A DNA stretch of 64,000 nucleotides from an uncultured Planctomycetia bacterium (lineage in GTDB: Bacteria > Omnitrophota > Gorgyraeia > CAYWPX01): the NCBI GenBank assembly GCA_964460615.1, contig CAYWPX010000007.1:4313-68312 (forward strand), read 5' to 3'. Made by a program: the position numbers and the translations under genes. Below, piece by piece: positions 14,145-28,995 of the stretch. Below the pieces are notes generated by a model. The model saw only the letters and a list, made by a program, of their open reading frames with translations. It was not told the DNA's origin and made no database searches. Position 1 is the stretch's first letter. Every line of letters begins with the position of its first letter.

Positions 14145-14231
14145 TTTTATCTTATCTATGTTATTCCTTTTTATGGGTACTCTACCCGGAAAAAGGACTA
14201 TTTATATTGGCCGAAACATGACCTATAAATG

Positions 14232-14266
14232 AAAAAAGGTGCTTATTTATTAATAAGACACCTCTT
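14232..14266 (-). terminator. Rho-independent terminator downstream of phoU
   Basis: Minus strand AGGTGTCTTATTAATAAATAAGCACCT hairpin followed by TTTTTTCATTT. Confidence 0.6.
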
Positions 14267-14352
14267 TGTGAAAGTATCAATACGTCTTTGTATCATGAGC
14301 CTATTTTATTAGAAAAAAACGGTTTTGTCAAGTTCAATCATAGGCATGGTTT

Positions 14353-15048
14353 TTAATTTTTGCTGCCGTCTTTATTCTCATTTTTCAGCTCCTCAAGATG
14401 ATGCTTGATGACCCTTGCCTGCACCATATATATGACATCTTCGGCTATGTTTGTGGCATGATCGCATATTCTTTCAAGAAATCTGGCTATCAATAATAAC
14501 GGCACTGCCCTGGTAGCGGTCTTGGCATCTTTTTCCATATAATCATGAATAAGCTCGCTTTGGACCTTATCCCTCAAATTGTCCGCTTCGGGGTCGGTAA
14601 CAAGGACTTTTTTAGCCAGCTCAACATCCTTTCTAATAAAAGATTCTATGGATTCACTTACCATCCTTTGGGCTATCTCAGACAGCCTTGGTATATCTAT
14701 CAGCGGCTTTAGAGGCGGCTCCTTTAAAAGCTCTGCCACCCTTTGGGCAATATCAACTGCGAGATCCGCTATTCTTTCAAGCTCTGCGTTTATCTTCATT
14801 CCGGTAGTGATAAACCTGAGATCAGCCGCCAAAGGCTGCCTTAGAGCAAGATATGTGAGGGACTTCTCCTCAATGACATTTTCAAGCTCGTCAATAAGTT
14901 TGTCGGACTCAATAACATCATTCGCAAGCTTTGGATCCCTATTTTTTAAAGCCTCTACTGCCTTAAATATCGCCTCTTCGCTCAAAGACGCCATTTTAGA
15001 AAGATCTTTATTTATATCACTCAACTCTTCTTCAAAATGTCTTTCCAT
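14353..15048 (-). CDS. phoU: Phosphate signalling complex protein PhoU
   Basis: Two PhoU repeats (DLRFITTGMKINAELERIAD...); last gene of the pst1 operon. Confidence 0.9.
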   Translation of the reverse strand: MERHFEEELSDINKDLSKMASLSEEAIFKAVEALKNRDPKLANDVIESDKLIDELENVIEEKSLTYLALRQPLAADLRFITTGMKINAELERIADLAVDIAQRVAELLKEPPLKPLIDIPRLSEIAQRMVSESIESFIRKDVELAKKVLVTDPEADNLRDKVQSELIHDYMEKDAKTATRAVPLLLIARFLERICDHATNIAEDVIYMVQARVIKHHLEELKNENKDGSKN

Positions 15049-15161: not shown

Positions 15162-15914
15162 TTATCCAAATCTTCCCGTAATATACTCCTCGGTCCTCTT
15201 GTCTCGGGGACCTTTAAATATCTCGTCTGTCTTTCCGAATTCAATAAGCTCTCCCATAAGCATAAAACCCGTGTCGTCAGAAACTCTCGCGGCCTGCTGC
15301 ATATTATGGGTAACTATTACTATGGTATAATCCTTTTTTAATTCTCTCATCAATTCTTCGATCCTTCCGGTTGCAATAGGATCGAGAGCCGAACAAGGTT
15401 CATCCATCAGAAGTATATCGGGCTTTACCGCAAGAAGCCTCGCGATACAGAGCCTCTGCTGTTGCTCCAAGGAGAGATTTAGCGCAAAATTATTTAGTTT
15501 ATCTTTAAGGTCATCCCACAAAAGAACGTCTTTTAGGCATTTTTCAACTATTTCGTCATATTCAGATCTTTTATTAATTCTGTGGATCTTCGAAGAAAAG
15601 ATTATATTTTCATATACGGAAATCGGAAAAGGATTCGGCCTCTGAAAAACCATGCCCACCTTTTTTCTTAAATTTATCATGTCTATTGCGGGTCTATATA
15701 TGTCCTCACCCTCAACCAATACTTTTCCATCTATATTTATACCTTCAATAAGGTCATTCATACGGTTAAATACCCGAAGAAGCGTGGACTTCCCGCACCC
15801 GGATGGGCCTATTATAGCGCTGATCCTATTCTTTTCAAAAGCGATATCAACGTCTATAAGCGCGTGGAATTTACCGTAATGAAGATTTAATTTTCTTGTT
15901 TCTATAATTGGCAT
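15162..15914 (-). CDS. pstB: Phosphate ABC transporter ATP-binding protein (copy 1 of a tandem pair)
   Basis: [20 protein letters not shown] Walker A and a PstB signature. Start placed at the internal Met (MPIIETRK); the track N-terminus overlaps upstream pstB. Confidence 0.9.
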   Translation of the reverse strand: MPIIETRKLNLHYGKFHALIDVDIAFEKNRISAIIGPSGCGKSTLLRVFNRMNDLIEGINIDGKVLVEGEDIYRPAIDMINLRKKVGMVFQRPNPFPISVYENIIFSSKIHRINKRSEYDEIVEKCLKDVLLWDDLKDKLNNFALNLSLEQQQRLCIARLLAVKPDILLMDEPCSALDPIATGRIEELMRELKKDYTIVIVTHNMQQAARVSDDTGFMLMGELIEFGKTDEIFKGPRDKRTEEYITGRFG

Positions 15915-15915
15915 T

Positions 15916-16671
15916 TTATCCGAATCTCCCAGATACATAATCTTCAGTCCTCTTATCGGATGGGCTTGTAAAGATCTTGTCCGTCTTATCTATCTCTATA
16001 AGTTCCCCCATCAGAAAAAATGCGGTTCTATCACTTACTCTTGCCGCTTGCTTTACATTATTCGTTACAAGAACTATCGTATAATCTTTTTTAAGCTTTA
16101 TCATCGCCTCTTCAACTTTGGCAGTTGATATCGGATCGAGTCCCGAGCACGGTTCATCAAAAAGTATGACCTCGGGATTTACAGCTAAGGTTCTAGCGAT
16201 GCAGAGCCTCTGCTGCTGGCCGCCCGATAACTGCAGAGCGGATGAATCAAGCCTCTTATTGACCTCTTCCCATAAATACGCTTCTTTAAGGCTTTTTTCA
16301 ACTATCTCCTCAAGCTTATTTATATTTGAAATGCCATGCATCCTCGGCCCGTAAGAAATATTATCAAAAATAGACATAGGAAGCGGAGCCGGTAAAGCAA
16401 AAACCATGCCTATCCTTTTTCTTAAAATATTAGGTTTTATACTGGAAAAAATATCTTCGTTATCAAGATACACCTTGCCGTTAATTCTAAAATTAGGCAC
16501 AAGGTCGTTAAGGCGGTTCAGCGTTCTTAGGAATGTGGTTTTTCCGCTATTCGCAGGGCCAATAACCCCGAGAATCTCATTTTTTTGTATATCGATATTA
16601 ACATTCTTTACGGCCTCGGCCTTGCCAAACCATATATTTAAAGATTCTGTTTTTATTTTAATATTATCCAT
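15916..16671 (-). CDS. pstB: Phosphate ABC transporter ATP-binding protein (copy 2 of a tandem pair)
   Basis: GPANSGKTTFLRTLNRLNDL; [13 protein letters not shown]. Confidence 0.9.
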   Translation of the reverse strand: MDNIKIKTESLNIWFGKAEAVKNVNIDIQKNEILGVIGPANSGKTTFLRTLNRLNDLVPNFRINGKVYLDNEDIFSSIKPNILRKRIGMVFALPAPLPMSIFDNISYGPRMHGISNINKLEEIVEKSLKEAYLWEEVNKRLDSSALQLSGGQQQRLCIARTLAVNPEVILFDEPCSGLDPISTAKVEEAMIKLKKDYTIVLVTNNVKQAARVSDRTAFFLMGELIEIDKTDKIFTSPSDKRTEDYVSGRFG

Positions 16672-16674
16672 ATT

Positions 16675-17523
16675 TTACCACTTCTTTTTCTTTCTGAAAT
16701 GTGACCTTATAACAATTGCGACTATATTCATAATAAGCACCATCGCCACCAGTACCAAAGCTGTCCCATAACGCATCTCAAGTTTGATATTAGGAATCTG
16801 CGTCGAAATAGCATAAAGGTGATACGGCAAAGCCATTGCCTGGTCAAAAATAGATTTCGGCAGGCTCGGAAGATAAAATGCAGCGACCGTAAAAAGTATA
16901 GGCGCAGCCTCACCGGCGATCCTGGCAACGCTTAAAATAGTCCCTGTTAAGATCCCGGGGACCGCATAGGGCAAAACCGCAAATCTGACGGTCTGCCATT
17001 TTGTCGCACCCAATGACAAGCTGACTTCTCTGAAAGACTGCGGTACAGTTTTCAGGGCTTCCCTGGAAGTTGTTATTATGACAGGAAGCGCCATTATAGC
17101 AAGCGTCAATGACCCAGAAAGTATTGAAGCGCCGAACTTAAAAAATATTACAAATATACCCAGACCAAAAAGTCCATAGACGACAGATGGAACACCAGCA
17201 AGGTTTATTATGGCAAGCTTTATAACTCTTGTAAAAAGATTCTCTTTTCCATACTCCGATAAATATACGGCCGCCAATAACCCCAATGGAAGCGCCACAA
17301 GAAGTGACCCGGTAACGAGATAAATAGTACCTAAAATTGCCGGGAAAATTCCGCCCGATCGCATGCCATCTTTTGGCATAGCGGTCAAGAACTCCCAGCT
17401 TATCGCGGGAAGCCCTTTATCAACAATAATATAAAGAATCAATATGACAGGTAATATAACGATTATCGCCGACAAAAATAAAAACACAAATGCTATGCGC
17501 TGGGTATATCTTTGGTTTAACAT
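16675..17523 (-). CDS. pstA: Phosphate ABC transporter permease PstA
   Basis: 6-TM permease with an EAA-type loop; position in the operon. Confidence 0.88.
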   Translation of the reverse strand: MLNQRYTQRIAFVFLFLSAIIVILPVILILYIIVDKGLPAISWEFLTAMPKDGMRSGGIFPAILGTIYLVTGSLLVALPLGLLAAVYLSEYGKENLFTRVIKLAIINLAGVPSVVYGLFGLGIFVIFFKFGASILSGSLTLAIMALPVIITTSREALKTVPQSFREVSLSLGATKWQTVRFAVLPYAVPGILTGTILSVARIAGEAAPILFTVAAFYLPSLPKSIFDQAMALPYHLYAISTQIPNIKLEMRYGTALVLVAMVLIMNIVAIVIRSHFRKKKKW

Positions 17524-18401
17524 TATTGTCTTGTCCTATGCAAAAATAGATCCGCTAAAAAATTTATTACAAAGGTTATTATAAATAACACTATTCCTAT
17601 AGCAAATAGCGACATATAATGGTCGCTTCCCAACACCGTCTCACCCATTTCAGAAGCAATTGTCGCGGTCATGGTCCTCACGGGCTCCAAAAAAGTCTGT
17701 GGTATAAGCGCAGCGTTACCGGTAACCATCATTACAGCCATAGTCTCACCGATAACCCTACCGATCCCAAGCATACTAGCCGCAATTATTCCGGGAAACG
17801 CCGCATGGAGGATTACCCTATGCATCATCTGCCACTTTGTAGCACCCAATGCGATAGCGCCTTCCCTGAAGTTTTTTGGAACAGCGGTTATAGCATCCTC
17901 GGCAATACTTACAATTGTGGGCATAGCCATAAAAGCAAGAAGTATGGATCCGGAAAGAGCCGTTAGGCCTGTGGGGATATCAAATACTTTTTTTATAAAA
18001 GGCACGAGTGTTATCATGCCTACAAACCCGATTACTACACTTGGTATGGCAGCCAATAGTTCTACTAATGATTTTAATATGTCTCTTATTCCTTTTGGGC
18101 AGACTTCAGCCAGATAAAAAGCGCACAAAACACCTATGGGGACTGAGATGATACTCGCTCCGAGAGTAACAATAAGAGATCCTAAAATTAATGGTAAAAT
18201 ACCGAACTTTGGAGGATCAGAGATGGGATACCAGTATTTTCCCCCCAAAAAATCCATAACATTATTATGCTTAAAAAATCCAAGCCCGTCTTTCAGAAGA
18301 AAGATAAATATCAGAATAACAAAAAATATCGTTATGCCGCCTGAGACAAAGATAAGCTTTTCTATAACAAATTCTTTAAATGTCTTTATCTTTTCATTCA
18401 T
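17523..18401 (-). CDS. pstC: Phosphate ABC transporter permease PstC
   Basis: PstC-type permease; 1-nt ATGA overlap with pstA. Confidence 0.88.
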   Translation of the reverse strand: MNEKIKTFKEFVIEKLIFVSGGITIFFVILIFIFLLKDGLGFFKHNNVMDFLGGKYWYPISDPPKFGILPLILGSLIVTLGASIISVPIGVLCAFYLAEVCPKGIRDILKSLVELLAAIPSVVIGFVGMITLVPFIKKVFDIPTGLTALSGSILLAFMAMPTIVSIAEDAITAVPKNFREGAIALGATKWQMMHRVILHAAFPGIIAASMLGIGRVIGETMAVMMVTGNAALIPQTFLEPVRTMTATIASEMGETVLGSDHYMSLFAIGIVLFIITFVINFLADLFLHRTRQ

Positions 18402-18467
18402 CTTATAAATGTTTTGTTTCCCTGCTAATTATTAACCATCTACTATTATAAAAATCTTTAGCTTTTA

Positions 18468-18497
18468 ACTTGTGACCTGTGACTTGCGACCTGTGAC
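18468..18497. repeat. Four tandem heptamers (ACTTGTG ACCTGTG ACTTGCG ACCTGTG) in the pstS1-pstC1 spacer
   Basis: Same AC(T/C)TG(T/C)(G/A) x4 motif recurs at 54012-54039. Confidence 0.6.
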
Positions 18498-18510
18498 AAT
18501 ATTCTATAAT

Positions 18511-19368
18511 CTATTTCACCGGTACAAAATCAATCTTTTTTACAATCTCCTGGCCTTCTTTGGAAAATATAAAATCCATAAAACTTTTTATTACCCCTTT
18601 AGGCTCACCATTCGTATACATAAATAGAGGCCTTGAAATAGGATAGTCTCCGCTTATAATATTTTCCGCCGTAGGTTCGTAATAATCTGAGTTTGTATCC
18701 TTAGCGACCGCTATAGTCTTTTCATTTGGGTTTGTGTACCCCATTCCAAAATATCCTATTGCATTAGAATTTTGAGAAACCTCATCGGCTATTGCCTGAG
18801 ACGACGGCATGAGAAGCGCTCCGGGATAAAATTCTTCGGGGTTCTTTGGGTTACCCTGCCTTAGAACATGTTCTTTAAAGAATAGATGCGTCCCTGAGTT
18901 TACTTCTCTGGATAATATTACAATTCCTTTTTTATCCCCTCCAAGACCTTTCCAGTTCCTTATGTTACCCATAAAAATATCCCTAAGCTGGCCAATGGTA
19001 AGCTTTGAGATAGGGTTTTCCTGGTTGACCACTATTGCTATTCCATCTAAAGCAACCTTAAACTCTTTAGGTTCGACGCCATTTTTTTTAGCGCTTTCAA
19101 TTTCTTTATCTGTCATAGCTCTTGAAGTTGTAGCAATATCGCAAGTTCCGTTAATTAAAGAAGCTATTCCGGTGCCGGAGCCGCCACCTGTTACAGCGAC
19201 ATTGATCCCCGGATTTAACCTTGTAAACTCCTCAGCCCACGCCTGACCCAGGTTCACTATCGTATCGGAGCCTTTTATCTGTATTGAATTATTATTTTCG
19301 GCGTACGAATTCCCGGATATAAAAAAAACAGAAAAGATGACGACGCACACTAATAACTTCTTTATCAT
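18511..19368 (-). CDS. pstS: Phosphate-binding protein PstS
   Basis: Signal peptide plus a PBP fold (TGGGSGTGIASLINGTCDIATTSRAM). Start at the internal Met (MIKKLL), which has a strong AAAGGAGA RBS. Confidence 0.88.
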   Translation of the reverse strand: MIKKLLVCVVIFSVFFISGNSYAENNNSIQIKGSDTIVNLGQAWAEEFTRLNPGINVAVTGGGSGTGIASLINGTCDIATTSRAMTDKEIESAKKNGVEPKEFKVALDGIAIVVNQENPISKLTIGQLRDIFMGNIRNWKGLGGDKKGIVILSREVNSGTHLFFKEHVLRQGNPKNPEEFYPGALLMPSSQAIADEVSQNSNAIGYFGMGYTNPNEKTIAVAKDTNSDYYEPTAENIISGDYPISRPLFMYTNGEPKGVIKSFMDFIFSKEGQEIVKKIDFVPVK

Positions 19369-19392
19369 TATATCTCCTTTAACGGGTAACAA

Positions 19393-19812
19393 TTATTTAA
19401 TTTGTTTCAATATGAAGTTAATTTTTCGAGGCAAAGGAAAATTGCCGCTAAGTAACTGGGTTTCCGTTCTAAATCTTGCATCAGGCGGGATAGCAACAAC
19501 GGATACAAGATCATCCTTCGCTAATCTGCCGCTATAAGTATAGGTAATAGGGGTTAACCCAATAGATTTATCCCCCCACTTAACCTCAACATCAGAAGGT
19601 ACTGAAGTAATCTCTACATTATACCGATTATATTCATAGATCATATCGTTATCTACTGAGAAACTATTCACCGGAGTTTTGGATATTTGCAATTTTTCAA
19701 TGCCTTCAAATGAATGGGAAACGGTCTGAAGAATGTTTGAATCCCTCCTTGAATAAGGATCGGCACACCCGGCAATTAATAAAAGAAGGGTTAATACAAA
19801 AAATATTCTCAT
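19393..19812 (-). CDS. Hypothetical lipoprotein
   Basis: Lipobox LLIAGC; 139 aa; directly upstream of pstS in the same transcription unit. Confidence 0.5.
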   Translation of the reverse strand: MRIFFVLTLLLLIAGCADPYSRRDSNILQTVSHSFEGIEKLQISKTPVNSFSVDNDMIYEYNRYNVEITSVPSDVEVKWGDKSIGLTPITYTYSGRLAKDDLVSVVAIPPDARFRTETQLLSGNFPLPRKINFILKQIK

Positions 19813-19835
19813 GAATGCCTCTTAATATTGAGTCT

Positions 19836-19864
19836 TTTATATCACAGCTATTTTAAAAAGTCAA
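19836..19864 (-). promoter_or_regulatory. Sigma-70-like promoter for the lipoprotein-pstS1 operon
   Basis: Minus strand -35 TTGACT, 17-nt spacer, -10 TATAAA, then AAGAGG RBS. An adjacent TTAACC-N5-TTGACT arrangement loosely resembles PhoP-type TTHACA direct repeats. Confidence 0.55.
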
Positions 19865-19902
19865 CTTATGGTTAAAGCAAAGAGATCTTCCTTCTACCTA
19901 TG

Positions 19903-20295
19903 CTAACTTTTGAGTTTTTTCAAAAATTCTTTTATTTGCTTTTTTATGTCATCTCTGACTTTTCTAAAAAAATCGATATCCTTGCCTTTTGGATCAGCTA
20001 TCTTCCAATCAATGTATTCTTTTGCCGGAAAAAACGGACAGACATCACTGCAGCCAAGTGTAATAACATAATCAAACTCTTTTATCTTTAAATCATTAAA
20101 ACTTTTTGATGTATTTGATGCAATGTCCAAACCAAGTTCTTTCATAACTGTTATCGCATTGGGATTTACCATTCCGGAAGGTTTCGATCCGGCGCTAAAT
20201 GCTTCTACTCGCCATTTTCCATAAAAATTCGCCAAAGATTCAGCCATTTGGCTCCTACATGAATTTTCAACGCACACAAACAATACTCTTTTCAT
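19903..20295 (-). CDS. arsC: Arsenate reductase, thioredoxin-coupled LMW-PTP type (ArsC)
   Basis: CVENSCRSQMAE P-loop (CX5R), downstream ITLGCSDVCP cysteine pair, and ...FFRKVRDDIKKQIKEF. Alignable along its length to Bacillus/Staphylococcus ArsC. Confidence 0.8.
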   Translation of the reverse strand: MKRVLFVCVENSCRSQMAESLANFYGKWRVEAFSAGSKPSGMVNPNAITVMKELGLDIASNTSKSFNDLKIKEFDYVITLGCSDVCPFFPAKEYIDWKIADPKGKDIDFFRKVRDDIKKQIKEFLKKLKS

Positions 20296-20318
20296 AAAAC
20301 TTCCTTTGTATAATAGTT

Positions 20319-21080
20319 TTATCCAAACCTGCCTGTAATATAGTCTTCAGTCCTTTTGTCGCAGGGAGCAGTAAAAATCTGCTGGGTTTTCCCGAACTCT
20401 AACAATTCTCCCAAAAAGAAAAAACCGGTATAGTCCGAAACCCTTGTCGCCTGTTGCATATTGTGAGTAACGATAACTATAGTATAATCGCTCTTCAACT
20501 CCATTATCAGCTCTTCGATCCTACTGGTAGAGATCGGATCCAAGCTCGCGCAAGGTTCATCAAAAAGAATTACTTCTGGTTCTACCGCCAGGCACCTTGC
20601 AATACAAAGTCTCTGTTGCTGGCCTCCTGAAAGCTTAAGAGCACTATCCTTGAGCCTGTCTTTTACTTCTTCCCATAAAGCGGCTTTTTTTAAAGAACTT
20701 ATTACTTTTTCTTCAATAATTTTCCTATCTTTGATCCCATTAACTTCAAGCCCATAAGCGACATTTTCAAAGATATTCTTCGGAAATGGATTAGGCTTCT
20801 GAAAAACCATCCCTACTCTACGCCTTAAGTCAACTACATCTAAAGACGCATCAAATATATCTTTTCCATCCAGATAAATATTTCCTTTTAAGTATGTATG
20901 CGGTACCATGTCGTTCATCCTGTTAAGAATCCTGATGAAAGTCGATTTGCCGCACCCTGAAGGCCCAATTATAGCAGTGACACAATTTTCAAAAATATTA
21001 ACGTTAATATTTTTTAAAGCATGCGCTTTACCATAATAAAAATCGAGATTTTCAGCCTTAATTTTAACTACTCTAATCAT
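20319..21080 (-). CDS. pstB: Phosphate ABC transporter ATP-binding protein (second operon)
   Basis: [20 protein letters not shown]. Start at the internal Met (MIRVVKIK); the track N-terminus overlaps pstA2. Confidence 0.9.
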
Positions 21081-21987
21081 TTTGACTCCTATTTCTTTGA
21101 CGTAAAAATATCGCCAAACCACTGATACACAATACCAGCACCAATAACACCAATGCGCAACCATATGCAATAGCAATCTGCTTATCCGGATGAGTACCTT
21201 CCGTCATAAGCGCATATATGTGATAAGGTAACGCCATAGCCTCTGAAAAAATAGAATCCGGATATCCTTTCATATAAAATGCTGCTGCCGTAAAAATAAT
21301 AGGTGCTGTCTCTCCTGCGATTCTTCCTATGCTTAATATTACTCCTGTCAATATTCCTGGAAGGGCCGCAGGGATTACGATCCTTTTAATGGTAGTCCAA
21401 TGAGATGCTCCGAGTGATAACGATGCCTCTCTTAAAGAATGAGGTACAAGCGTAAGGGCTTCCTGGGAACTTGCAATAATCATTGGAAGAGCCATAATCC
21501 CAAGCGTTAAACTTCCGGATAAGATACTTACTCCGAATTTAAAAAATTTTACAAACACCGCTAAGCCAAAAAGGCCGAATACTACCGAAGGCACCCCTGC
21601 AAGATTGGTTATGGACATCCTTAAAATATTAACAACATGGCCTTTTGGGCTGTATTCCGAGAGGTATATAGCGCACGCTAAACCTAAAGGAAGCGCAAAT
21701 AAAATTGCTCCCATTGTAAGATAGATTGTCCCTACGATTGCCGGGGCAATACCTCCGGCTGTCATGCCTTTTCTTGGAACTTCCAAAAGAAAATCAAGCG
21801 AAATAACACTCACTCCTTTAAAAGAGATGAAATATATGATAGTCCCAAGAAAAAAAAGCGTGGTTACCATACTTAGAAATAAAAGCAAAAAACCTAGGTT
21901 TTGTGAAATATGTCTCTTCTTCATAAGGCTACCCGTGCATTCCAAGTTTGATCCTAAAATTCCTGGAGATAAGTTCTGCGACCACAT
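21073..21987 (-). CDS. pstA: Phosphate ABC transporter permease PstA (second operon)
   Basis: Paralogue of 16675..17523. The true start may be the internal MKKRHIS (~21924). Confidence 0.85.
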
Positions 21988-22819
21988 TAAAAAGAAACGT
22001 CATTAAAAATAGGATCAGCGCTATGGCAAATAAGGCATTATAGTGAAGGCTGCCCATTACAGCCTCCCCCATTTCCGCCGCAATTGTTGAAGTCATAGGC
22101 CTAACCGGCTCAAAAAAAGTTGTTGGAATTACTGCCGCTCCTCCCGATACCATCAATACTGTCATGGTTTCACCTATGGCCCTACTCATACCCAAAATAA
22201 TTGCAGTCGATATCCCGGATCCCGCAGCGGGAATAACTACCTTAACAAGTGTTTTCCATCTGTTGGCTCCAAGCGCAAAAGATGCTTCACGAAAACTTCT
22301 CGGAACGCAATTAAGCGCATCTTCGGCGATACTACATACAGTTGGAGTAGCCATTATGCCAAGAACTAAACTTGCTGTAAAAGCGCATAATCCCGTAGAA
22401 AGATGGAGCGCCTTCTGCAGAAAGGGAGCCGCTATGACCATCCCAAAAAAACCATAGACAACCGATGGTATGCTTGCTAAAAGCTCAATAAGCGGCTTTA
22501 GTATCATTTTTTGCTTAATTCCCGCTAGCTCATTTAAATATAATGCGCTTCCAACCCCCAAAGGCACACACACAAAAAGCGCCCCACTTGTAACCCAGAT
22601 AGATGCCCATATGATCGGTAAAATGCCGAACTCTGCATCTTCATGCGTAGGATACCAGGTCTTTCCAAAAAGAAAATCAGTCATTTTGACTGCCTTAAAT
22701 AAAGGAAAGCTTTCTCGAAAAAGAAGGACCATTATACCTACCAAGAATAATAAAGATGCAAAAGCCAAACATGCAAATATCCACTCATATATCTTTTCTT
22801 TAATTTTAACTTTTTTCAT
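21929..22819 (-). CDS. pstC: Phosphate ABC transporter permease PstC (second operon)
   Basis: Paralogue of pstC. Start at the internal MKKVKIK (22819), just downstream of a terminator-like hairpin. Confidence 0.85.
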   Translation of the reverse strand: MKKVKIKEKIYEWIFACLAFASLLFLVGIMVLLFRESFPLFKAVKMTDFLFGKTWYPTHEDAEFGILPIIWASIWVTSGALFVCVPLGVGSALYLNELAGIKQKMILKPLIELLASIPSVVYGFFGMVIAAPFLQKALHLSTGLCAFTASLVLGIMATPTVCSIAEDALNCVPRSFREASFALGANRWKTLVKVVIPAAGSGISTAIILGMSRAIGETMTVLMVSGGAAVIPTTFFEPVRPMTSTIAAEMGEAVMGSLHYNALFAIALILFLMTFLFNVVAELISRNFRIKLGMHG

Positions 22820-22833
22820 AATTTTTAAATTTG

Positions 22834-22868
22834 AAAAGGGAGGGTGAAAATGATTGCTTCCCTCCCCC
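22834..22868 (-). terminator. Intercistronic attenuator hairpin between pstS2 and pstC2
   Basis: Minus strand GGGGGAGGG-N15-CCCTCCC followed by TTTTCAAATTT, immediately upstream of the preferred pstC2 start. Confidence 0.6.
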
Positions 22869-22905
22869 GGCAATCCTTATATATCAAAATATTGTCAATA
22901 GTGCT

Positions 22906-23721
22906 TTATTTTGCTAAACCGACATAACCTTCTTCATCTGCTATTTTCTGGCCTTCTTTACTCAAAATATAGTCAATGAATTCCTTTGCAAGGTTTTTTG
23001 GCTGACCGTTAGTATACATAAAAAGCGGCCTTGCAAGAGGGTATGTTCCGTTAAGAACAGTATCTTTTGAAGGAGAAATGCCATTTAGCGTTACAGACTT
23101 GACCGAACCTGACATAAAACCCAGCCCAACATAACCTATCGCTCCTGGGGTCTTTGATACAATTGAAGCAACGGCTTGATTAGAAGCCGCCAAGAGGGCA
23201 TCCGGACGGACTTTCTCTTTGTCCATAGCTAATTCACCAAAGGCTTCAAATGTACCACTAGCGCTATCGCGCGATATGACAACTATCTTCTCGTTGACTC
23301 CGCCTATTTGAGACCAGTTCGAATATTTACCTGTATATATACCCTTTACTTGAGATTTGTCTAAAGCGCTTATTTTGTTTCCAGGGTTCACTATTACAGC
23401 AATACCATCCATAGCAACAACAAATGCCTTAGGGTCTTTCCCTTTTCTTATAGCTTCATCAAGCTCCTTTTCTTTCATGGATCTTGAGGCAGTAGCAATA
23501 GCGCATCCGCCATCTATTAAGGATGTGATACCAACTCCTGAACCACCGCCCTTTACTGATATATCGGCGTCTTTATTTTTATCCATAAACTCCTCTGCCG
23601 CTCTTTGCGCTATCGGCAGAACTGTTGTTGAACCTTCTACGATTATTTTTTCAGCATATGAAATCCCGCTAAACACGAGCGCAAACATCACTAGTATCAA
23701 TACACTCTTTAACGACTTCAT
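22906..23721 (-). CDS. pstS: Phosphate-binding protein PstS (second operon)
   Basis: Signal peptide plus a PBP fold. The track start ATGGAGGATAAGATG contains a GGAGGA RBS, so the start is taken as the second ATG (MKSLKS). Confidence 0.85.
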   Translation of the reverse strand: MKSLKSVLILVMFALVFSGISYAEKIIVEGSTTVLPIAQRAAEEFMDKNKDADISVKGGGSGVGITSLIDGGCAIATASRSMKEKELDEAIRKGKDPKAFVVAMDGIAVIVNPGNKISALDKSQVKGIYTGKYSNWSQIGGVNEKIVVISRDSASGTFEAFGELAMDKEKVRPDALLAASNQAVASIVSKTPGAIGYVGLGFMSGSVKSVTLNGISPSKDTVLNGTYPLARPLFMYTNGQPKNLAKEFIDYILSKEGQKIADEEGYVGLAK

Positions 23722-23771
23722 CTTATCCTCCATTAGTCTATTGCTATTTAAATTCCATTGTTCAGATAATA

Positions 23772-25106
23772 CTAAAATTTAACTAGTATATCGCCCATGG
23801 CAAGTGAATGCGGTTTTTTGCTCATGGTTGTCTTTATCGGCTGAGACCAATAGTATCTTAGGCCCAGCTCTGTATTTTTGAATATCAGATAGGAAAGTCC
23901 CGTCACGCATCCCCTTCCATTAGTTCCTCCGCCAACCGATGTCCCGGTGGTAGTAAAACCATAAAAATCTGAATCGGGAAGAATATCGGGAATGCTATCC
24001 CTTCCTATATACCTCAATTCGGCATAATACTTCCAATTACCCACATCTTTCAGGCTTTTATTGCCTACATATGCGCCAGCTGTTGCGGCCATTTTACCGC
24101 CTGTTCCGGATTTAATAGCAGTATTTGTCATAACTTCCCCGTATAATCCATGAGGGACCTCAATATTGAATATCCTCTGATTATCAAGTCTTGCGATTAC
24201 GCCAACATCAATGAACGGATATCTGATACCACCTATATAGGCAGCATTCACGCTTTTAGTAAAACGGGTATTCGTGCTTGTGCTTTCTGAGGGGCTTTTT
24301 GTCTGATAATGCGAAAAATCATAACAAGTCGCGGCAAGATTTAACGTAGTGCCCCAAGGTTGATAAAGATCTGACTTTAAACCTGCCTGCCACCCCCATA
24401 ACATCGCATCGGCCTTTGTAGAAGACACCTCCATAACCCATAGCATCGCAGCATTTCCGTACAAAGTAGTTGCAGGTAAAAATCCATACTTCAAAGTCGG
24501 TGATTCATACTGAATAGCCATACCTTCGGGGCATATATCAGAATCCCAAACCATCTCGGTGGTTTCAAAAGGATTCTGGAATTTACCCATCCATAGTTTT
24601 GATTTATCCACATACTTCAAGGTGGGCTCTATTCTTATATAATACTGGTCAAATGTAACATATTTTTTCTGAAAGCTTCCGCTTAGAGTAATGTTTGTTG
24701 ACCTTGCGTCTGTAGGATTATCGTTCTGGGCCGTTACGAGCCTTCCGCCGCCGTAGATCATATCATTAATTTTAGCCTCTATCCCGAGTCTAAGCCTTAC
24801 CCTTTCTCTGAAACGGTTCTCAATTACCCCCTGGCCCCAGTCAACCTGATTCCTGAAACGCACATCTCCTTTTACCTTAAGCCTTTGAACCCATTCAGGC
24901 ACACCATCCTTGGTCCCTTTCGCAAGCTCTTTTCTAGTCTCTTCTTTTGTCTCAACTGAAATCTGCTTTGCCTCACCGGCAGTCAAAACACCTTTATCGA
25001 CAAGCTTATTCAATAAAATATCTACATCTGTAGCACCAGATACTCTTAACGGCGAAGCTAAGAAAATAAGCGCCGTTAATACTATCACACCCCTTATCTT
25101 TCTCAT
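23772..25106 (-). CDS. Outer-membrane beta-barrel porin, possibly phosphate-selective (OprO/OprP-like)
   Basis: Signal peptide, alternating amphipathic beta-strand pattern, C-terminal ...LVKF ending in Phe; immediately upstream of pstS2. Same ATGGAGGATAAGATG start arrangement as pstS2. Confidence 0.6.
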   Translation of the reverse strand: MRKIRGVIVLTALIFLASPLRVSGATDVDILLNKLVDKGVLTAGEAKQISVETKEETRKELAKGTKDGVPEWVQRLKVKGDVRFRNQVDWGQGVIENRFRERVRLRLGIEAKINDMIYGGGRLVTAQNDNPTDARSTNITLSGSFQKKYVTFDQYYIRIEPTLKYVDKSKLWMGKFQNPFETTEMVWDSDICPEGMAIQYESPTLKYGFLPATTLYGNAAMLWVMEVSSTKADAMLWGWQAGLKSDLYQPWGTTLNLAATCYDFSHYQTKSPSESTSTNTRFTKSVNAAYIGGIRYPFIDVGVIARLDNQRIFNIEVPHGLYGEVMTNTAIKSGTGGKMAATAGAYVGNKSLKDVGNWKYYAELRYIGRDSIPDILPDSDFYGFTTTGTSVGGGTNGRGCVTGLSYLIFKNTELGLRYYWSQPIKTTMSKKPHSLAMGDILVKF

Positions 25107-25143
25107 CTTATCCTCCATTCAATTTTCTATTACATTTCTATAC

Positions 25144-25368
25144 TTAATACAATCCGCCATCATTAAAACAATAGGCGCCAAAAAAACTAACAGGCTCCAA
25201 ATTGCTTTCACGGATCTCTTTCAAGCTTTTTTCAATATCGTTCAGCGCTTTTCCATAATAATCTTTATTGAATTCCCAAAGCGTATCAGACTCTAAGCTT
25301 CCTAATAATGAACTCAATCTTTCTTGCTGGGCCCTGATTCCCGAGATCAAAATATCGTTTTCAGTCAT
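25144..25368 (-). CDS. Small hypothetical protein (74 aa)
   Basis: Strong RBS AGGAGGTG 4 nt upstream of the ATG; lies between the Pho-box promoter and the porin. Confidence 0.45.
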   Translation of the reverse strand: MTENDILISGIRAQQERLSSLLGSLESDTLWEFNKDYYGKALNDIEKSLKEIRESNLEPVSFFGAYCFNDGGLY

Positions 25369-25471
25369 TCTGCACCTCCTTTCTACAACCCAGCTGAATG
25401 TACTAAAATTATTTTGGATGTTTTCATCAAAAAAATTTTAGTATATGCGATGGGGCTGGGCTCTTTGATAA

Positions 25472-25576
25472 TTAAGCGCATCTATAAAAATTGTTCATGT
25501 TCTTCTTTTCTTCTTCAATAATTCTCTTAAGGTAACCATTAATTTTATTTAAAGCCCTGTTTATCTTTTTTTTCAT
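25472..25576 (-). CDS. Candidate small basic peptide (34 aa, MKKKINRALNKINGYLKRIIEEEKKNMNNFYRCA)
   Basis: Found manually; below the track size cut-off. AAGGAGA RBS 6 nt upstream of the ATG; first ORF after the Pho-box-like promoter. Confidence 0.3.
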   Translation of the reverse strand: MKKKINRALNKINGYLKRIIEEEKKNMNNFYRCA

Positions 25577-25638
25577 ATCGCTTTCTCCTTTTTTTTCTTA
25601 ATCTATTTTTGCTTAGAGTATACAAATAATCTGTAAGA

Positions 25639-25672
25639 AATATATGAAGCCTGTGTTAAATCTGTGTAAAAT
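25639..25672 (-). promoter_or_regulatory. Pho-box-like direct repeat with downstream -10 (candidate PhoB/PhoP-dependent promoter of the small-ORF/porin/pst2 unit)
   Basis: Plus strand CTGTGTTAAAT CTGTGTAAAAT, two 11-bp direct repeats resembling E. coli CTGTCATAAAACTGTCATA. On the coding (minus) strand they read TTTACA-N5-TTAACA, i.e. TTHACA repeats 9 nt upstream of TATATT; no sigma-70 -35. Confidence 0.5.
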
Positions 25673-25728: not shown

Positions 25729-25768
25729 AAAAAAGCCGGGATATATATTCGATATCCCGGCTTAAAAT
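25729..25768 (-). terminator. Strong (bidirectional) rho-independent terminator after the zinc-ribbon membrane protein gene
   Basis: AGCCGGGATAT-ATATTCG-ATATCCCGGCT stem (11 bp) followed on the minus strand by TTTTTTATTT. Confidence 0.8.
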
Positions 25769-25788: not shown

Positions 25789-26160
25789 TTATACCTTAAT
25801 GCCTCTTTTTTTCAGTTCTTTAATTTTCTTGTCTGAGCATACCTTACATAAAAAAACAGGTTTTGCATCAGTCTTATCATAATTTTTGGCTTTGACAAGT
25901 CTCCTGAGCTCCGTAACGACACCGCAGTTATCGCATTTACCCGTCTCTTTTATATGCCATACCTCAAAAGCACGGCTCGTAAAAATAAACTTGTCGACCC
26001 AGAAAAATATCGCCCCTCCGATAAGGTTGGCTATCACTGTCTGCCAAATACCTGCTCCCAATTCATGTACAACAATATACAATATCGGTGTTGACAACTG
26101 CCATCTGAATAAATACGTTATAAACCTGACCACAGCTATTCCTTTCTTAATGTAAACCAA
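25789..26160 (-). CDS. Small membrane protein (GtrA-like 2-3 TM N-terminus) with C-terminal C4 zinc ribbon
   Basis: Hydrophobic helices followed by CDNCG...CKVCSDKK; followed by a strong terminator. Confidence 0.45.
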   Translation of the reverse strand: MVYIKKGIAVVRFITYLFRWQLSTPILYIVVHELGAGIWQTVIANLIGGAIFFWVDKFIFTSRAFEVWHIKETGKCDNCGVVTELRRLVKAKNYDKTDAKPVFLCKVCSDKKIKELKKRGIKV

Positions 26161-27482
26161 AAATTAGATCCTTTACCTTCTTCGCTTTCAACGCCTATTT
26201 TCCCGCCATGCAGTTCTACAATATGCTTTGCTATAGATAGCCCCAACCCCGTACCTCCCAATTCACGCGAACGGGCCTTGTCAACTCTATAGAATCTTTC
26301 AAAAATCCTTGATAGATGATCTCTTGAGATACCGATCCCTGTGTCACTAACGGAGATCTTATGCTCGTTATCATTTTCAGATGTTGCAATAGAAATCATT
26401 CCATTTATTTTATTGAATTTTATAGCATTGTCAATAAGATTTATCATTACCTCCGTTATTTTTTCAGAATCGGCTTTAATGATAGCTTCGGAAGTTAGAT
26501 CAAATCTTACTTTGATGTTCTTTTTTTCTATGCATAATTTAAAAGATTCAACAACTTCTTTTATAATAGAATTTAATTCAACCTCTTTGATGTTCAGCCC
26601 GGCTGCCTTTGATTCAATCTTTGAAAGTTCGAGTATATTGCCTATTAGATTTTCCAATCGCACTGATTCTTTTTTTATAATTTCTAAAAAATTTCTATTA
26701 TTCTTCGGATCATCCAATGCCCCATCCAAAAGAGTCTCCACAAAACCTTTTATCGATGTTAGCGGAGTTTTAAGTTCATGAGAAACGTTGGCTACGAAAT
26801 CTTTTCTCATATTTTCAAATTTTTTGATCTCGGTAATATCATATAAAACTAAAAGCGCGCCTCTATTATTTTTATTTGAAACCAGGTCTTTTGTAATAAT
26901 CTTAAGGATCCTGTTTTCCGGATAAAAAATATTGACTTCTTTTTCTATAAAAGATTTTTGCTTTGTCAATACATTGTCTATTGAATCAATTATCTCACTA
27001 TTCCTTAAGCTCTCAAAATAGGGCCTTCCGAGAAAATCGCTTTTTTTAAAACCTAATATCTCACCAAATCTATCATTGGCAAACACTATCTTCTTTTCTG
27101 AATCTACCGCCAAAACTCCCTCAATGAGCGTTTCCAATATAGACGCATTATGCAGCTTTCCCATCTCGAGGCTTGAAATTTTATTTGAGACATTAATAGA
27201 CAGCAAATTGATAGCTTTAAAAAGCGGATCTTTGCCATTTTTGCCTTTAATAAAAATACTTTTTGAATAATTTCCTTCTTCGAATGATTTGAGTGCTTTC
27301 GTCACTTTTTCATAGTCTCTTCTGACTAAAAATTCAATGGAGCACCCGGCTAAAAAACTCAAAAATAAGACTATTGCCCATAAAAAAAGAGGCAAAGCCC
27401 CGTTAAAATTACTTATTGTAAACAAAACCAATAAGGTCATTATTAAAATTATCAGCAAAAATTTGAACTTTATCAAGATCAC
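26136..27482 (-). CDS. phoR: Sensor histidine kinase, PhoR-like (TM-PAS-HisKA-HATPase)
   Basis: H-box FVANVSHELKTPLTSIKG, a PAS domain, and N/G1/G2 boxes; adjacent to phoB and the pst operons. Confidence 0.82.
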   Translation of the reverse strand: MILIKFKFLLIILIMTLLVLFTISNFNGALPLFLWAIVLFLSFLAGCSIEFLVRRDYEKVTKALKSFEEGNYSKSIFIKGKNGKDPLFKAINLLSINVSNKISSLEMGKLHNASILETLIEGVLAVDSEKKIVFANDRFGEILGFKKSDFLGRPYFESLRNSEIIDSIDNVLTKQKSFIEKEVNIFYPENRILKIITKDLVSNKNNRGALLVLYDITEIKKFENMRKDFVANVSHELKTPLTSIKGFVETLLDGALDDPKNNRNFLEIIKKESVRLENLIGNILELSKIESKAAGLNIKEVELNSIIKEVVESFKLCIEKKNIKVRFDLTSEAIIKADSEKITEVMINLIDNAIKFNKINGMISIATSENDNEHKISVSDTGIGISRDHLSRIFERFYRVDKARSRELGGTGLGLSIAKHIVELHGGKIGVESEEGKGSNFWFTLRKE

Positions 27483-28171
27483 TCCATCTCGAATCTGTAG
27501 CCAACATTTTTTATTGTTATTATCTTTTTACCTACATCCTTCAACTTTTTCCTCAGGCTGGCAACATGCACATCAACGGTCCTGGTTTCGAGTTCTATAG
27601 ACTTATCAAGACCCCATACTGCATTCAAAAGAAAATCACTTGAAAGAGCCCTTCCTTTTGAATCGATAAGGACTTTCAAAAGCTCAAATTCTTTGGAAGT
27701 AAGTATCACATTTTTATCTTTGATCTTAACAATATATTTTGAAAAATCTATAAAGAGATCCCCTCTCTTAACCAAACCATTGTGAGTCTTTTTATCTTCA
27801 AACCTTCTCAGTATCGCCTTTACTCTGGCCATTAACTCCTTTGGGCTAAAAGGTTTTGTTACATAATCATCCGCTCCAAGCTCAAGGCCGATTATCTTGT
27901 CAGACTCTTCTGATTTGGCGGTAAGAATTATTATCGGGGATTTTGATAGGGAACTTTGATTTTTAAGATACTTGCAAACTTCGAGCCCATCGATCTTAGG
28001 CAGCATCAGATCTAAGATAATGAGGTCCGGGACTTCTTTCAGGGCAATCTTAATAGCAGAGTCTCCGTCAAAAGCTTTTATAACCTCATACCCTTCTTTT
28101 TCGAGATTATACTCAAGCATTTTTACAATATTTTTGTCGTCTTCTACTATTAATATTCTCTTGCTGCTCAA
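27479..28171 (-). CDS. phoB: OmpR/PhoB-family response regulator
   Basis: REC domain (IVEDDKNIVKML...DLMLP) plus a winged-helix trans_reg_C domain; 4-nt overlap with phoR. Confidence 0.85.
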   Translation of the reverse strand: MSSKRILIVEDDKNIVKMLEYNLEKEGYEVIKAFDGDSAIKIALKEVPDLIILDLMLPKIDGLEVCKYLKNQSSLSKSPIIILTAKSEESDKIIGLELGADDYVTKPFSPKELMARVKAILRRFEDKKTHNGLVKRGDLFIDFSKYIVKIKDKNVILTSKEFELLKVLIDSKGRALSSDFLLNAVWGLDKSIELETRTVDVHVASLRKKLKDVGKKIITIKNVGYRFEME

Positions 28172-28194: not shown

Positions 28195-28995
28195 TTATTT
28201 TCCGTCAGGTGATGAAAAAATTATACCCTTGCTGTATATAGGCCTGCCGAGTTCGTTATCATAGACTGTATGCTCAAAATCATCATTCCAATAGAACGGG
28301 CCCTTAACGTGCCCATCCACGAAAAGCACCATTACCGGTATCTTAGGATAATCGGATTCGCCGCTGCCGCCATGCCCGGGTTTATTCATTGAGATACAGG
28401 CCTCGAGAAAAACTTTATTACGCGGTCTTGTTATTGTAGTTAAAGGCCTTGGCACCTGAACAACACTGCCATCCTGAGATCCGATTGAATAATTAAGTAT
28501 GCTTGCGTTAGCTATATAAGATGTCCCCGCAAAATCAAAGAAAGTATAACCCATCCAATTCGGCGCCCTATCCGCAGGACAATGAAACAACTCTATATTC
28601 GGACTCGACTCATCATTTATGTTCAAATATTTATTCAATACGCGGTTTTTTGCATTAAACTCTTCCGTGTTGTTTACTCCTTTTTTTCCGCCATAAGAGA
28701 AATCCGTAGTCTCGCCTTTTTGAGGCAAATAGCCCCATTTAGGAAATAAATTCCCATGCTCTTCAAGATAAAGGCGCCATGCAATACCATGTTGCCTTAA
28801 ATTGTTTAAACATTGTATGCTTATCGCTTCACCCTTCAACGAAGACAAAACCGGTATGAATAACAAAAAAATAAAGCCGATAATAAGAAGCGTCATTACC
28901 AGCTCAATAGCCGAAAACCCCTTAACGGAAAAAACAAGATAATCCGGTTCAGAGTTCTTGTTTTTTAATAGATATTTTTTTAAAACATGGGTCAT
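28195..28995 (-). CDS. Prepilin-type N-terminal cleavage/methylation domain protein with H-X9-DG motif (DUF1559 family)
   Basis: GFSAIELVMTLLIIG prepilin helix and C-terminal LFVDGHVKG. Confidence 0.7.
   Translation of the reverse strand: MTHVLKKYLLKNKNSEPDYLVFSVKGFSAIELVMTLLIIGFIFLLFIPVLSSLKGEAISIQCLNNLRQHGIAWRLYLEEHGNLFPKWGYLPQKGETTDFSYGGKKGVNNTEEFNAKNRVLNKYLNINDESSPNIELFHCPADRAPNWMGYTFFDFAGTSYIANASILNYSIGSQDGSVVQVPRPLTTITRPRNKVFLEACISMNKPGHGGSGESDYPKIPVMVLFVDGHVKGPFYWNDDFEHTVYDNELGRPIYSKGIIFSSPDGK

Follow-up and report, generated by a model that had tools for sequence, protein, structure and literature searches.

The classical pstSCAB-phoU phosphate-uptake operon is known from Escherichia coli and many other bacteria, and hexamers repeated in 11-bp phase make up the PhoB/PhoP boxes of the Pho promoters of E. 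coli and Bacillus subtilis. In this work we analyzed a 64-kb stretch of DNA from an uncultured bacterium of the Omnitrophota (64,000 bp of contig CAYWPX010000007.1, hereafter the window), in which a gene for an ArsC-like protein, a putative arsenate reductase, is packed into an operon of this kind. As in the classical operon, the five genes stand in the same order and a phoBR-type system is adjacent; Pho-box-like direct repeats in 11-bp phase precede a -10-like element. The window differs in that an extra arsC lies between pstB and phoU, that a porin gene and two small open reading frames (orfs) belong to the unit, and that another whole pst cluster, its PstB presumably a heterodimer, stands before phoU.

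Linkage of arsenic and phosphate genes has been described for the arsenic islands of arsenite oxidisers (Li et al., 2013, PMC3834237) and for Halomonas GFAJ-1 (PMC5930303). The window resembles the arsenic islands in the physical linkage of arsenic-resistance and phosphate-uptake genes, with the analogy of arsenate and phosphate as the explanation. In the islands, however, the extra pst genes are passengers in a large, often horizontally acquired aio/ars/acr3 island under ArsR, whereas the window has a lone arsC inside a core Pho-type phosphate operon. The surroundings are housekeeping genes, namely mnmG, a GAF-ANTAR regulator gene and marC upstream and the gene of an AEC-family transporter, carA/carB, guaA and purL/purQ downstream, and for this reason the locus is not an arsenic island. 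Besides, arsC is the sole arsenic gene in the window and the G+C content is even (approximately 0.37–0.41 over the region).

Phosphate limitation induces arsenic-detoxification genes in marine cyanobacteria (e.g., Crocosphaera arsB; PMC11665274), and a similar switching on of arsenate detoxification by phosphate stress is proposed here for the window. The cyanobacterial ars genes form separate loci with an exporter, whereas the window couples the reductase alone, through operon membership. In Sinorhizobium meliloti, the arsenite produced by ArsC of the arsR-aqpS-arsC-arsH operon reportedly leaves the cell along its gradient by an aquaglyceroporin, without an energy-driven exporter; that operon thus has a channel gene and ArsR control, in contrast to the window locus, where no channel gene was found. 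No description of an arsC inside pstSCAB-phoU was found in a full-text literature search, most subscription journals being outside its coverage. The embedding of arsC between pstB and phoU is real, conserved and apparently undescribed, and it is predictable in concept from the mimicry of phosphate by arsenate.

All gene-like orfs of at least 110 amino acids in the window are located on the minus strand. In the direction of transcription, phoB-phoR and the gene of a 123-amino-acid membrane protein are followed by a terminator, the Pho-box array, orf34, orf74, the gene of a Porin_5 porin, pstS2-C2-A2-B3 and the ArsC-like gene and then, after a gap of 90 nt, by lipoprotein-pstS1-C1-A1-B1-B2-phoU and a terminator-like hairpin (Table 1). 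The genes listed by the first-pass annotation of this DNA were all recovered at their minus-strand coordinates, as orfs and by Pfam/NCBIfam matches. Its outline of the locus was likewise borne out: two divergent Pst systems lie head-to-tail, the upstream one with its own porin and with arsC packed in behind pstB3, and the downstream operon reads lipoprotein-pstS-C-A-B-B-phoU with tandem pstB copies, its pst and phoU genes scoring above the NCBIfam cut-offs. The pstB3 stop and the arsC ATG are separated by exactly 23 nt, with the ribosome-binding site AAGGAAG between them.

The ArsC-like protein shares with the ArsC proteins of Staphylococcus aureus pI258, B. subtilis and Corynebacterium glutamicum the PF01451 fold, the CX5R(S) P-loop, the nucleophilic Cys, an Asp as general acid and two downstream Cys. 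Its P-loop reads C8-VENSC-R14-S15. Across 82 family members C8, R14, C82 and C86 do not vary, and D101 of the D101-P102 motif is Asp in 80 of the 82 and Asn in two; in a set of 25 homologues all five residues, D101 included, were invariant. When the family profile was compared with PDB sequences, the best matches were Synechocystis ArsC (2L17, 3e-35) and C. glutamicum ArsC1' (3T38, 3e-32), followed by the pI258 and B. subtilis enzymes (1e-27 to 1e-30), with YwlE-type phosphatases at about 1e-11. The family motif GCxDxCP aligns onto GCGDVCP of Cg_ArsC1', whose catalytic residues are C88/C162/C166 and which is thioredoxin-dependent (PMC6514093); the spacing of C8/C82/C86 (74 and 4 residues) is identical. 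Unlike Cg_ArsC1', the window protein is about 130 amino acids long and has no N-terminal extension. In pI258 ArsC the second resolving Cys stands 7 residues past the first, compared with 4 in the window protein.

Synechocystis ArsC, a glutathione/glutaredoxin-coupled hybrid, is the top solved relative, belongs to the top NCBIfam model (TIGR02689, 107 bits) and has the same P-loop. It uses Cys80/Cys82, whereas the window family has Leu or Met at position 80, and Cys86 has no Synechocystis counterpart. Since the Cys80 position is absent, a glutaredoxin mechanism is not expected. The first-pass label of a thioredoxin-coupled ArsC is a reasonable one for the predicted enzyme: the low-molecular-weight (LMW) phosphatase type and the cysteine pattern of Cg_ArsC1' stand, while the coupling itself is read from that pattern and the scores fall under three NCBIfam cut-offs. 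The genomic setting differs from that of the pI258, B. subtilis and C. glutamicum types, being a pst-phoU operon instead of an arsR-regulated ars operon and having no linked pump.

Ten of 81 family members belong to classical arsenic operons (arsR-acr3-arsC or arsC-arsP; L036, L048, L054, L056, L058, L040, L076, L082, L035, L081) and are 53–63% identical to the window protein; their neighbors are, by Pfam, ArsR (HTH_5), Acr3 (SBF, 205 bits) and ArsP permeases. In an alignment comparison, no residue at a catalytic position separates these 10 from the 61 pst-linked members. That pst-linked members share the catalytic residues of ars-operon members argues for the same chemistry and is the strongest argument available; judged from these residues, the activity of the pst-linked proteins is most likely arsenate reduction. 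A separate pst-linked clade was also considered and rejected, as the neighbor-joining tree is star-like and ars- and pst-linked members interleave in it.

The distribution of the arrangement was studied in a one-genome-per-species scan, which gave at least 593 relatives of the ArsC-like protein; the best 80 loci were retrieved and, together with one more, 81 loci, mostly of Omnitrophota, were mapped with the window proteins. The closest homologues of the window ArsC, with 60–70% identity, come mostly from metagenome-assembled genomes (MAGs) of Omnitrophota. The order pstB-arsC-phoU was found in 43 of the 81 loci, the order of the window, pstB-arsC-pstS1-C-A-B-B-phoU, in four (L016, L028, L034, L037) and pstB-lipoprotein-arsC-phoU in three (L019, L021, L069); overall, approximately 61 loci show pst/pho linkage. 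The genes are tightly packed: arsC starts at a median distance of 2.5 nt behind the stop of pstB (n = 48), phoU follows the stop of arsC after a median of 8 nt (n = 49), and several pairs overlap. The pstB-arsC adjacency recurs in 48 other genomes, far beyond chance, and the lineages are deeply diverged, their porins being about 30% and their PhoR about 40% identical to those of the window. MAGs that their submitters labelled as other phyla have differing arrangements (Elusimicrobia L038; Saganbacteria L050; Chloroflexi L065 and L083; Firestonebacteria L079; Margulisiibacteriota L078), e.g., pstSCAB-phoU-arsC in L050, pstS-arsC-pstCAB-phoU in L065, and arsC after a tandem-pstB cluster in L038, as also in L010.

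Because the linkage recurs across diverged lineages and in various orders, we regard arsC as a regular constituent of the pst-phoU operon within this part of the tree and as no substitute for phoU. The description of the operon as ending in arsC instead of phoU was a misreading: more than half of the loci have arsC between pstB and phoU, and the phoU of the window lies beyond the second pst cluster. The ancestral and commonest order is pstSCAB-arsC-phoU, which corrects the idea of an operon without phoU. Two complete tandem units, porin-pstS2CAB-arsC-phoU and then pstS1CABB-phoU, are present in many relatives (L026, L051, L055, L071, L073, L079), and the order in the window would most simply derive from such an arrangement by loss of the first phoU. 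With the arrangement present in dozens of related genomes, the handling of arsenate seems to belong routinely to phosphate import in these bacteria.

Both pst clusters encode all four subunits in the order S-C-A-B with scores above the NCBIfam cut-offs. PstS1 and PstS2 are only 42% identical and are therefore old paralogues; a recent identical duplication, which would have undermined the first-pass proposal, is not what was found. Comparison of PstS proteins from 47 related genes revealed 13 positions at which the two types have different, nearly fixed residues, some of them in predicted anion-binding loops: GSTT is present in 32 of 32 type-2 and GSDT in 17 of 17 type-1 proteins, and further differences (type 2 versus type 1) are GGGSxVG versus GGGSGTG, V67 versus T67 and SRD versus SRE. 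Both types retain the core motifs that characterize ordinary PstS.

Between the terminator of the phoBR unit and orf34, about 155 nt are non-coding. The five-hexamer array located there matches the direct-repeat PhoB/PhoP pattern, and its last hexamer, TTTGTA, overlaps a -10-like TATACT at 25622–25617. Yet two-hexamer matches number 10 in the window against 6.95 expected, not above chance, so that the argument for a Pho box rests on position and conservation. Upstream of the porin gene (600 nt, 37 relatives) the motif TTNACA-N5-TTNACA is about 6-fold enriched (0.53 versus 0.09 per kb), with at least one match in 18 loci, and one relative, L006, has an identical 17-mer upstream of its porin gene. 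In 9 of 17 relatives the same box immediately precedes pstS1; among them are the window-like loci L016, L034 and L037, which have a consensus Pho box in the gap between arsC and pstS1.

In the window, the 90-nt gap between arsC and the lipoprotein gene contains a candidate internal promoter with a degenerate Pho box; folding revealed no terminator, hairpin or structured RNA in this gap (z -0.27). It could thus not be demonstrated that the upstream operon terminates at arsC, as had been proposed. Terminators are located at both ends of the 11.4-kb stretch and none inside it. Our reading of these signals is that the whole stretch from ~25670 to ~14230 may form one Pho-controlled unit with an internal promoter and with arsC in the first transcript; read-through from arsC into pst1-phoU appears likely.

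It is known that arsenate enters cells via phosphate transporters and that the discrimination by Pst is imperfect (PMC11665274; PMC3834237). Among the functions suggested by the first-pass annotation, reduction of imported As(V) by a co-expressed ArsC is judged the best reading, and we put at roughly 0.6 the probability that PhoB controls the locus as a unit and that its ArsC reduces the arsenate leaking in via Pst. According to this model, PhoR and PhoB encoded upstream would activate the 11-bp-phased Pho-box promoter when phosphate is limiting, and this promoter would drive the two small proteins, the porin, the PstS2-C2-A2-B3 importer and ArsC. Transcription probably reads through into lipoprotein-PstS1-C1-A1-B1/B2-PhoU and/or restarts at the internal promoter. 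ArsC would act by a three-cysteine relay, with Cys8 as nucleophile and a Cys82/Cys86 disulfide, and thioredoxin would probably recycle the enzyme; its substrate would be the arsenate let in by the high-affinity Pst system at phosphate scarcity. Arsenite would leave by a route encoded elsewhere, whether a pump, a channel or diffusion of As(OH)3.

A number of observations weigh against this model. The exit route of As(III) is its weak point: a tblastn search with the sequences of relatives (E 1e-6) gave no acr3, arsP, arsR or PiT match in the window, and about 57 of 60 pst-linked loci have no arsenite exporter or arsR within 10 kb. Only in three pst-linked loci was an ArsP-like permease located 7–10 kb away. 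With none of the three NCBIfam arsenate-reductase models does the protein reach the cut-off (TIGR02691, 93.6 versus 174.3; NF010053, 101.8 versus 215; TIGR02689, 107.1 versus 157.6), and it thus belongs to a distinct subfamily outside the existing equivalog models. Promoter-like matches across the region are at the level of shuffled sequence (50 versus 47). Two family members (L063, L067) lie in an apparent sulfate-assimilation cluster, which means that the context of the family is not exclusively arsenic and phosphate. Finally, As(III) dominates over As(V) in anoxic water, the habitat of many Omnitrophota.

The lack of a linked arsenite exporter and the scores under the equivalog cut-offs would also fit an ArsC-like protein recruited to a PstB-PhoU-PhoR signaling complex as its regulatory or phosphatase partner, engaged in arsenate or redox sensing or in hydrolysis of a phospho-intermediate and not chiefly in detoxification. 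The most conserved neighbor of arsC is indeed phoU, which encodes a signaling protein (49 loci, with the short gaps and overlaps described above), and the LMW-phosphatase fold and CX5R P-loop are common to true phosphatases, including the arginine phosphatase YwlE. Nevertheless, we consider this explanation unlikely, as C82 and C86, superfluous for a phosphatase, are conserved without exception in the 61 pst-linked members, pst- and ars-operon members are alike at the catalytic positions and interleave in the tree, and the arsenate reductases in PDB match the family at 1e-27 to 3e-35, compared with 1e-11 for YwlE-type phosphatases. It is a quite unlikely variant that the protein is in addition a partner of PhoU/PstB that senses arsenate or redox state and keeps imported arsenate from being taken for a sign of sufficient phosphate, or gates the transporter; if true, it would be a previously unrecognised component of phosphate signaling in Omnitrophota and several uncultivated phyla.

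The divergence of the two importers raises a different possibility, that pst2 is specialised for arsenate-rich conditions through an arsenate-discriminating PstS2 and forms with ArsC a stress module distinct from the housekeeping pst1-phoU. The 42% identity of PstS1 and PstS2, the 13 near-fixed differences (among them GSTT/GSDT and SRD/SRE) and the location of arsC behind the porin-type pst in most loci are consistent with it. However, arsC is also found after the tandem-pstB type (L010, L038), after phoU (L050) and between pstS and pstC (L065), and it thus tracks pst/phoU generally, not one PstS type. Moreover, the same Pho box precedes both operon types in relatives, no ArsR or other arsenic-responsive element was found in the window, and both PstS types keep the ordinary core motifs. 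In Halomonas GFAJ-1 both Pst systems stayed phosphate-specific, and deletion of either left arsenic resistance unchanged (PMC5930303). A specialised importer is thus improbable, and the notion of a Pst variant tuned for arsenate stress, put forward in the first-pass annotation, is not upheld, with arsC attached to either pst type and near-universal in the group, hence not peculiar to this genome. That arsC is an independently transcribed neighbor, its adjacency to pst having no functional meaning, is very improbable. A weak promoter-like ATTACA-18-TATTAT (9/12) does overlap the 3' end of pstB3, but such matches are at chance level in the region; the spacing of the two genes is tight here and in the 48 other genomes, with some overlaps, and the linkage is kept where porins are only about 30% identical and has been re-invented in other orders in other phyla.

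If arsenate reduction within a Pho-controlled unit is the true function, Omnitrophota and neighboring candidate phyla, abundant inhabitants of groundwater and sediments, would hard-wire arsenate reduction to phosphate starvation and not to arsenic sensing. Metagenomic arsC counts from such habitats would then be as much a measure of phosphate stress as of exposure to arsenic, and phosphate scarcity would lead to conversion of As(V) to the more mobile As(III), which bears on the release of arsenic in aquifers. An arrangement with no pump raises the question of how As(III) exits from the cell.

Table 1. Features of the phosphate-uptake locus and its regulatory signals, in the order of transcription (positions in the window; scores are in bits, "vs" introducing the cut-off of the model)
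Feature	Position	Strand	Evidence
phoB-like gene, OmpR-family response regulator	27479..28171	-	TIGR02154 (PhoB) 243, below equivalog cut-off 296; position kept in relatives
Phosphate-sensor histidine kinase (PnpS/PhoR type)	26136..27482	-	NF046044 (PnpS) 433 vs 400; TIGR02966 (PhoR) 315
123-amino-acid membrane protein, C-terminal CxxC...CxxC, last of phoBR unit	25789..26160	-	orf; no Pfam/NCBIfam match
Intrinsic terminator closing the phoB-phoR unit	25733..25763	-	12-bp G+C-rich stem and T-run; -20.1 kcal/mol, z -4.1
Pho-box-like array, five hexamers in 11-bp phase (TTTACA, TTAACA, TTCATA, CTTACA, TTTGTA)	25616..25670	-	sequence pattern
orf34, small basic peptide (34 amino acids), first orf of the unit	25472..25576	-	ribosome-binding site present; ATG at 25576; positional homologues in 8 relatives
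orf74, conserved small protein (74 amino acids)	25144..25368	-	positional homologues in 13 relatives; gene called in public assemblies
Porin_5 outer-membrane porin with signal peptide	23772..25118 (likely start 25106)	-	PF16930, E 4.9e-43
pstS2, type 2, GSTT loop	22906..23733	-	TIGR02136 284 vs 206.6; PDB 4Q8R at 7.6e-39
pstC2, permease	21929..22873	-	TIGR02138 291 vs 196
pstA2, permease	21073..21987	-	TIGR00974 289 vs 193
pstB3, canonical single ATPase, LSGGQ, VTHN H-loop	~20319..21080	-	TIGR00972 400 vs 343
ArsC-like LMW-phosphatase-type protein, 130 amino acids; C8-X5-R14-S15 P-loop, C82, C86, D101	19903..20295	-	PF01451, E 4.7e-25, 88.9 vs 23.2
Candidate internal promoter, TTAACC-N5-TTGACT (degenerate Pho box), 17 nt, TATAAA	19835..19875	-	arsC-lipoprotein gap
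139-amino-acid lipoprotein of pst operons	19393..19812	-	lipobox LIAGC; no Pfam match
pstS1, type 1, GSDT loop (likely ATG 19368)	18511..19392	-	TIGR02136 264 vs 206.6
pstC1	17523..18401	-	TIGR02138 288 vs 196
pstA1	16675..17523	-	TIGR00974 294 vs 193
pstB1, H-loop His->Asn (VTNN), Walker A GPANSGKT, LSGGQ intact	15916..16671	-	TIGR00972 362 vs 343
pstB2, LSLEQ replacing LSGGQ, Walker A and H-loop intact	15162..15938	-	TIGR00972 379 vs 343
phoU, sole copy, end of the whole unit	14353..15048	-	TIGR02135 192 vs 130
Terminator-like hairpin and U-run after phoU	14228..14267	-	fold of 14352–14200: -33 kcal/mol, z -3.55

The porin gene is always located immediately upstream of pstS2 in relatives. 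Its product has PF16930 as its sole Pfam match, and no relative was found among PDB sequences. Co-regulation with Pst under phosphate starvation, as in the outer-membrane porins OprP/OprO and PhoE, is proposed for it; unlike OprP/OprO, it belongs to Porin_5 and not to Porin_O_P (PF07396). The two small orfs at the head of the unit have no Pfam or NCBIfam match. The 139-amino-acid lipoprotein recurs in pst operons of relatives, either between pstB and arsC (L019, L021, L069) or before phoU (L064 is also among these loci).

Some features of the two importers should be mentioned. The PstS2 of the window lacks Asp78 and Asp81, which are common in type 2. The asymmetry of the tandem PstB proteins is conserved in all 15 pairs (e.g., those of L010, L016, L026, L034 and L071): the first copy has VTNN and GP[SA]NSGKT with an intact LSGGQ, and the second has LSLEQ with intact Walker A and H-loop. 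Since the defects of PstB1 and PstB2 share one ATP site in a head-to-tail dimer, the pair would have one degenerate and one consensus site. The single PstB proteins of the porin-type operon are canonical. In the pstS1-pstC1 gap (18402–18510) we revealed a short tandem repeat-like run, CACAGGTCGCAAGTCACAGGTCACAAG.

Homologues of the 123-amino-acid CxxC protein, with 66–67% identity, were found in L046 (13608–13943) and L055 (2021–2359). In many relatives (L003, L006, L008, L011, L013–L018 and others) a stand-alone receiver-domain protein of about 120–135 amino acids is encoded between phoR and the porin gene, and in the window the CxxC protein occupies this slot. A 266-amino-acid protein encoded at 28195–28995 has an N-terminal sequence, GFSAIELVMTLLIIG, that by eye resembles a prepilin-type cleavage/methylation motif; Pfam and NCBIfam gave no match for this protein.

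The AEC-family transporter encoded after phoU (PF03547, with a weak SBF match) was considered as a linked arsenite exporter and rejected, as it is not conserved beside phoU in relatives. In the clusters of L063 (6763–10378) and L067 (6652–10387), the neighbors as judged by eye are PAPS reductase, ATP sulfurylase, a PHO4/PiT-family permease and a JAMM-domain protein. A second link to phosphate, with ArsC beside a PiT transporter, was rejected for these two loci, as the neighbors read as sulfate assimilation. The ArsC-family members are located at the cluster end and may overlap the JAMM-domain orf or be fused with it, which hints at a sulfur role for this thiol reductase family.

It should also be mentioned that plausible genes are placed almost totally on the minus strand over the whole window (1–64000), where the GC skew is also negative from end to end; a strand bias of this strength is unusual.

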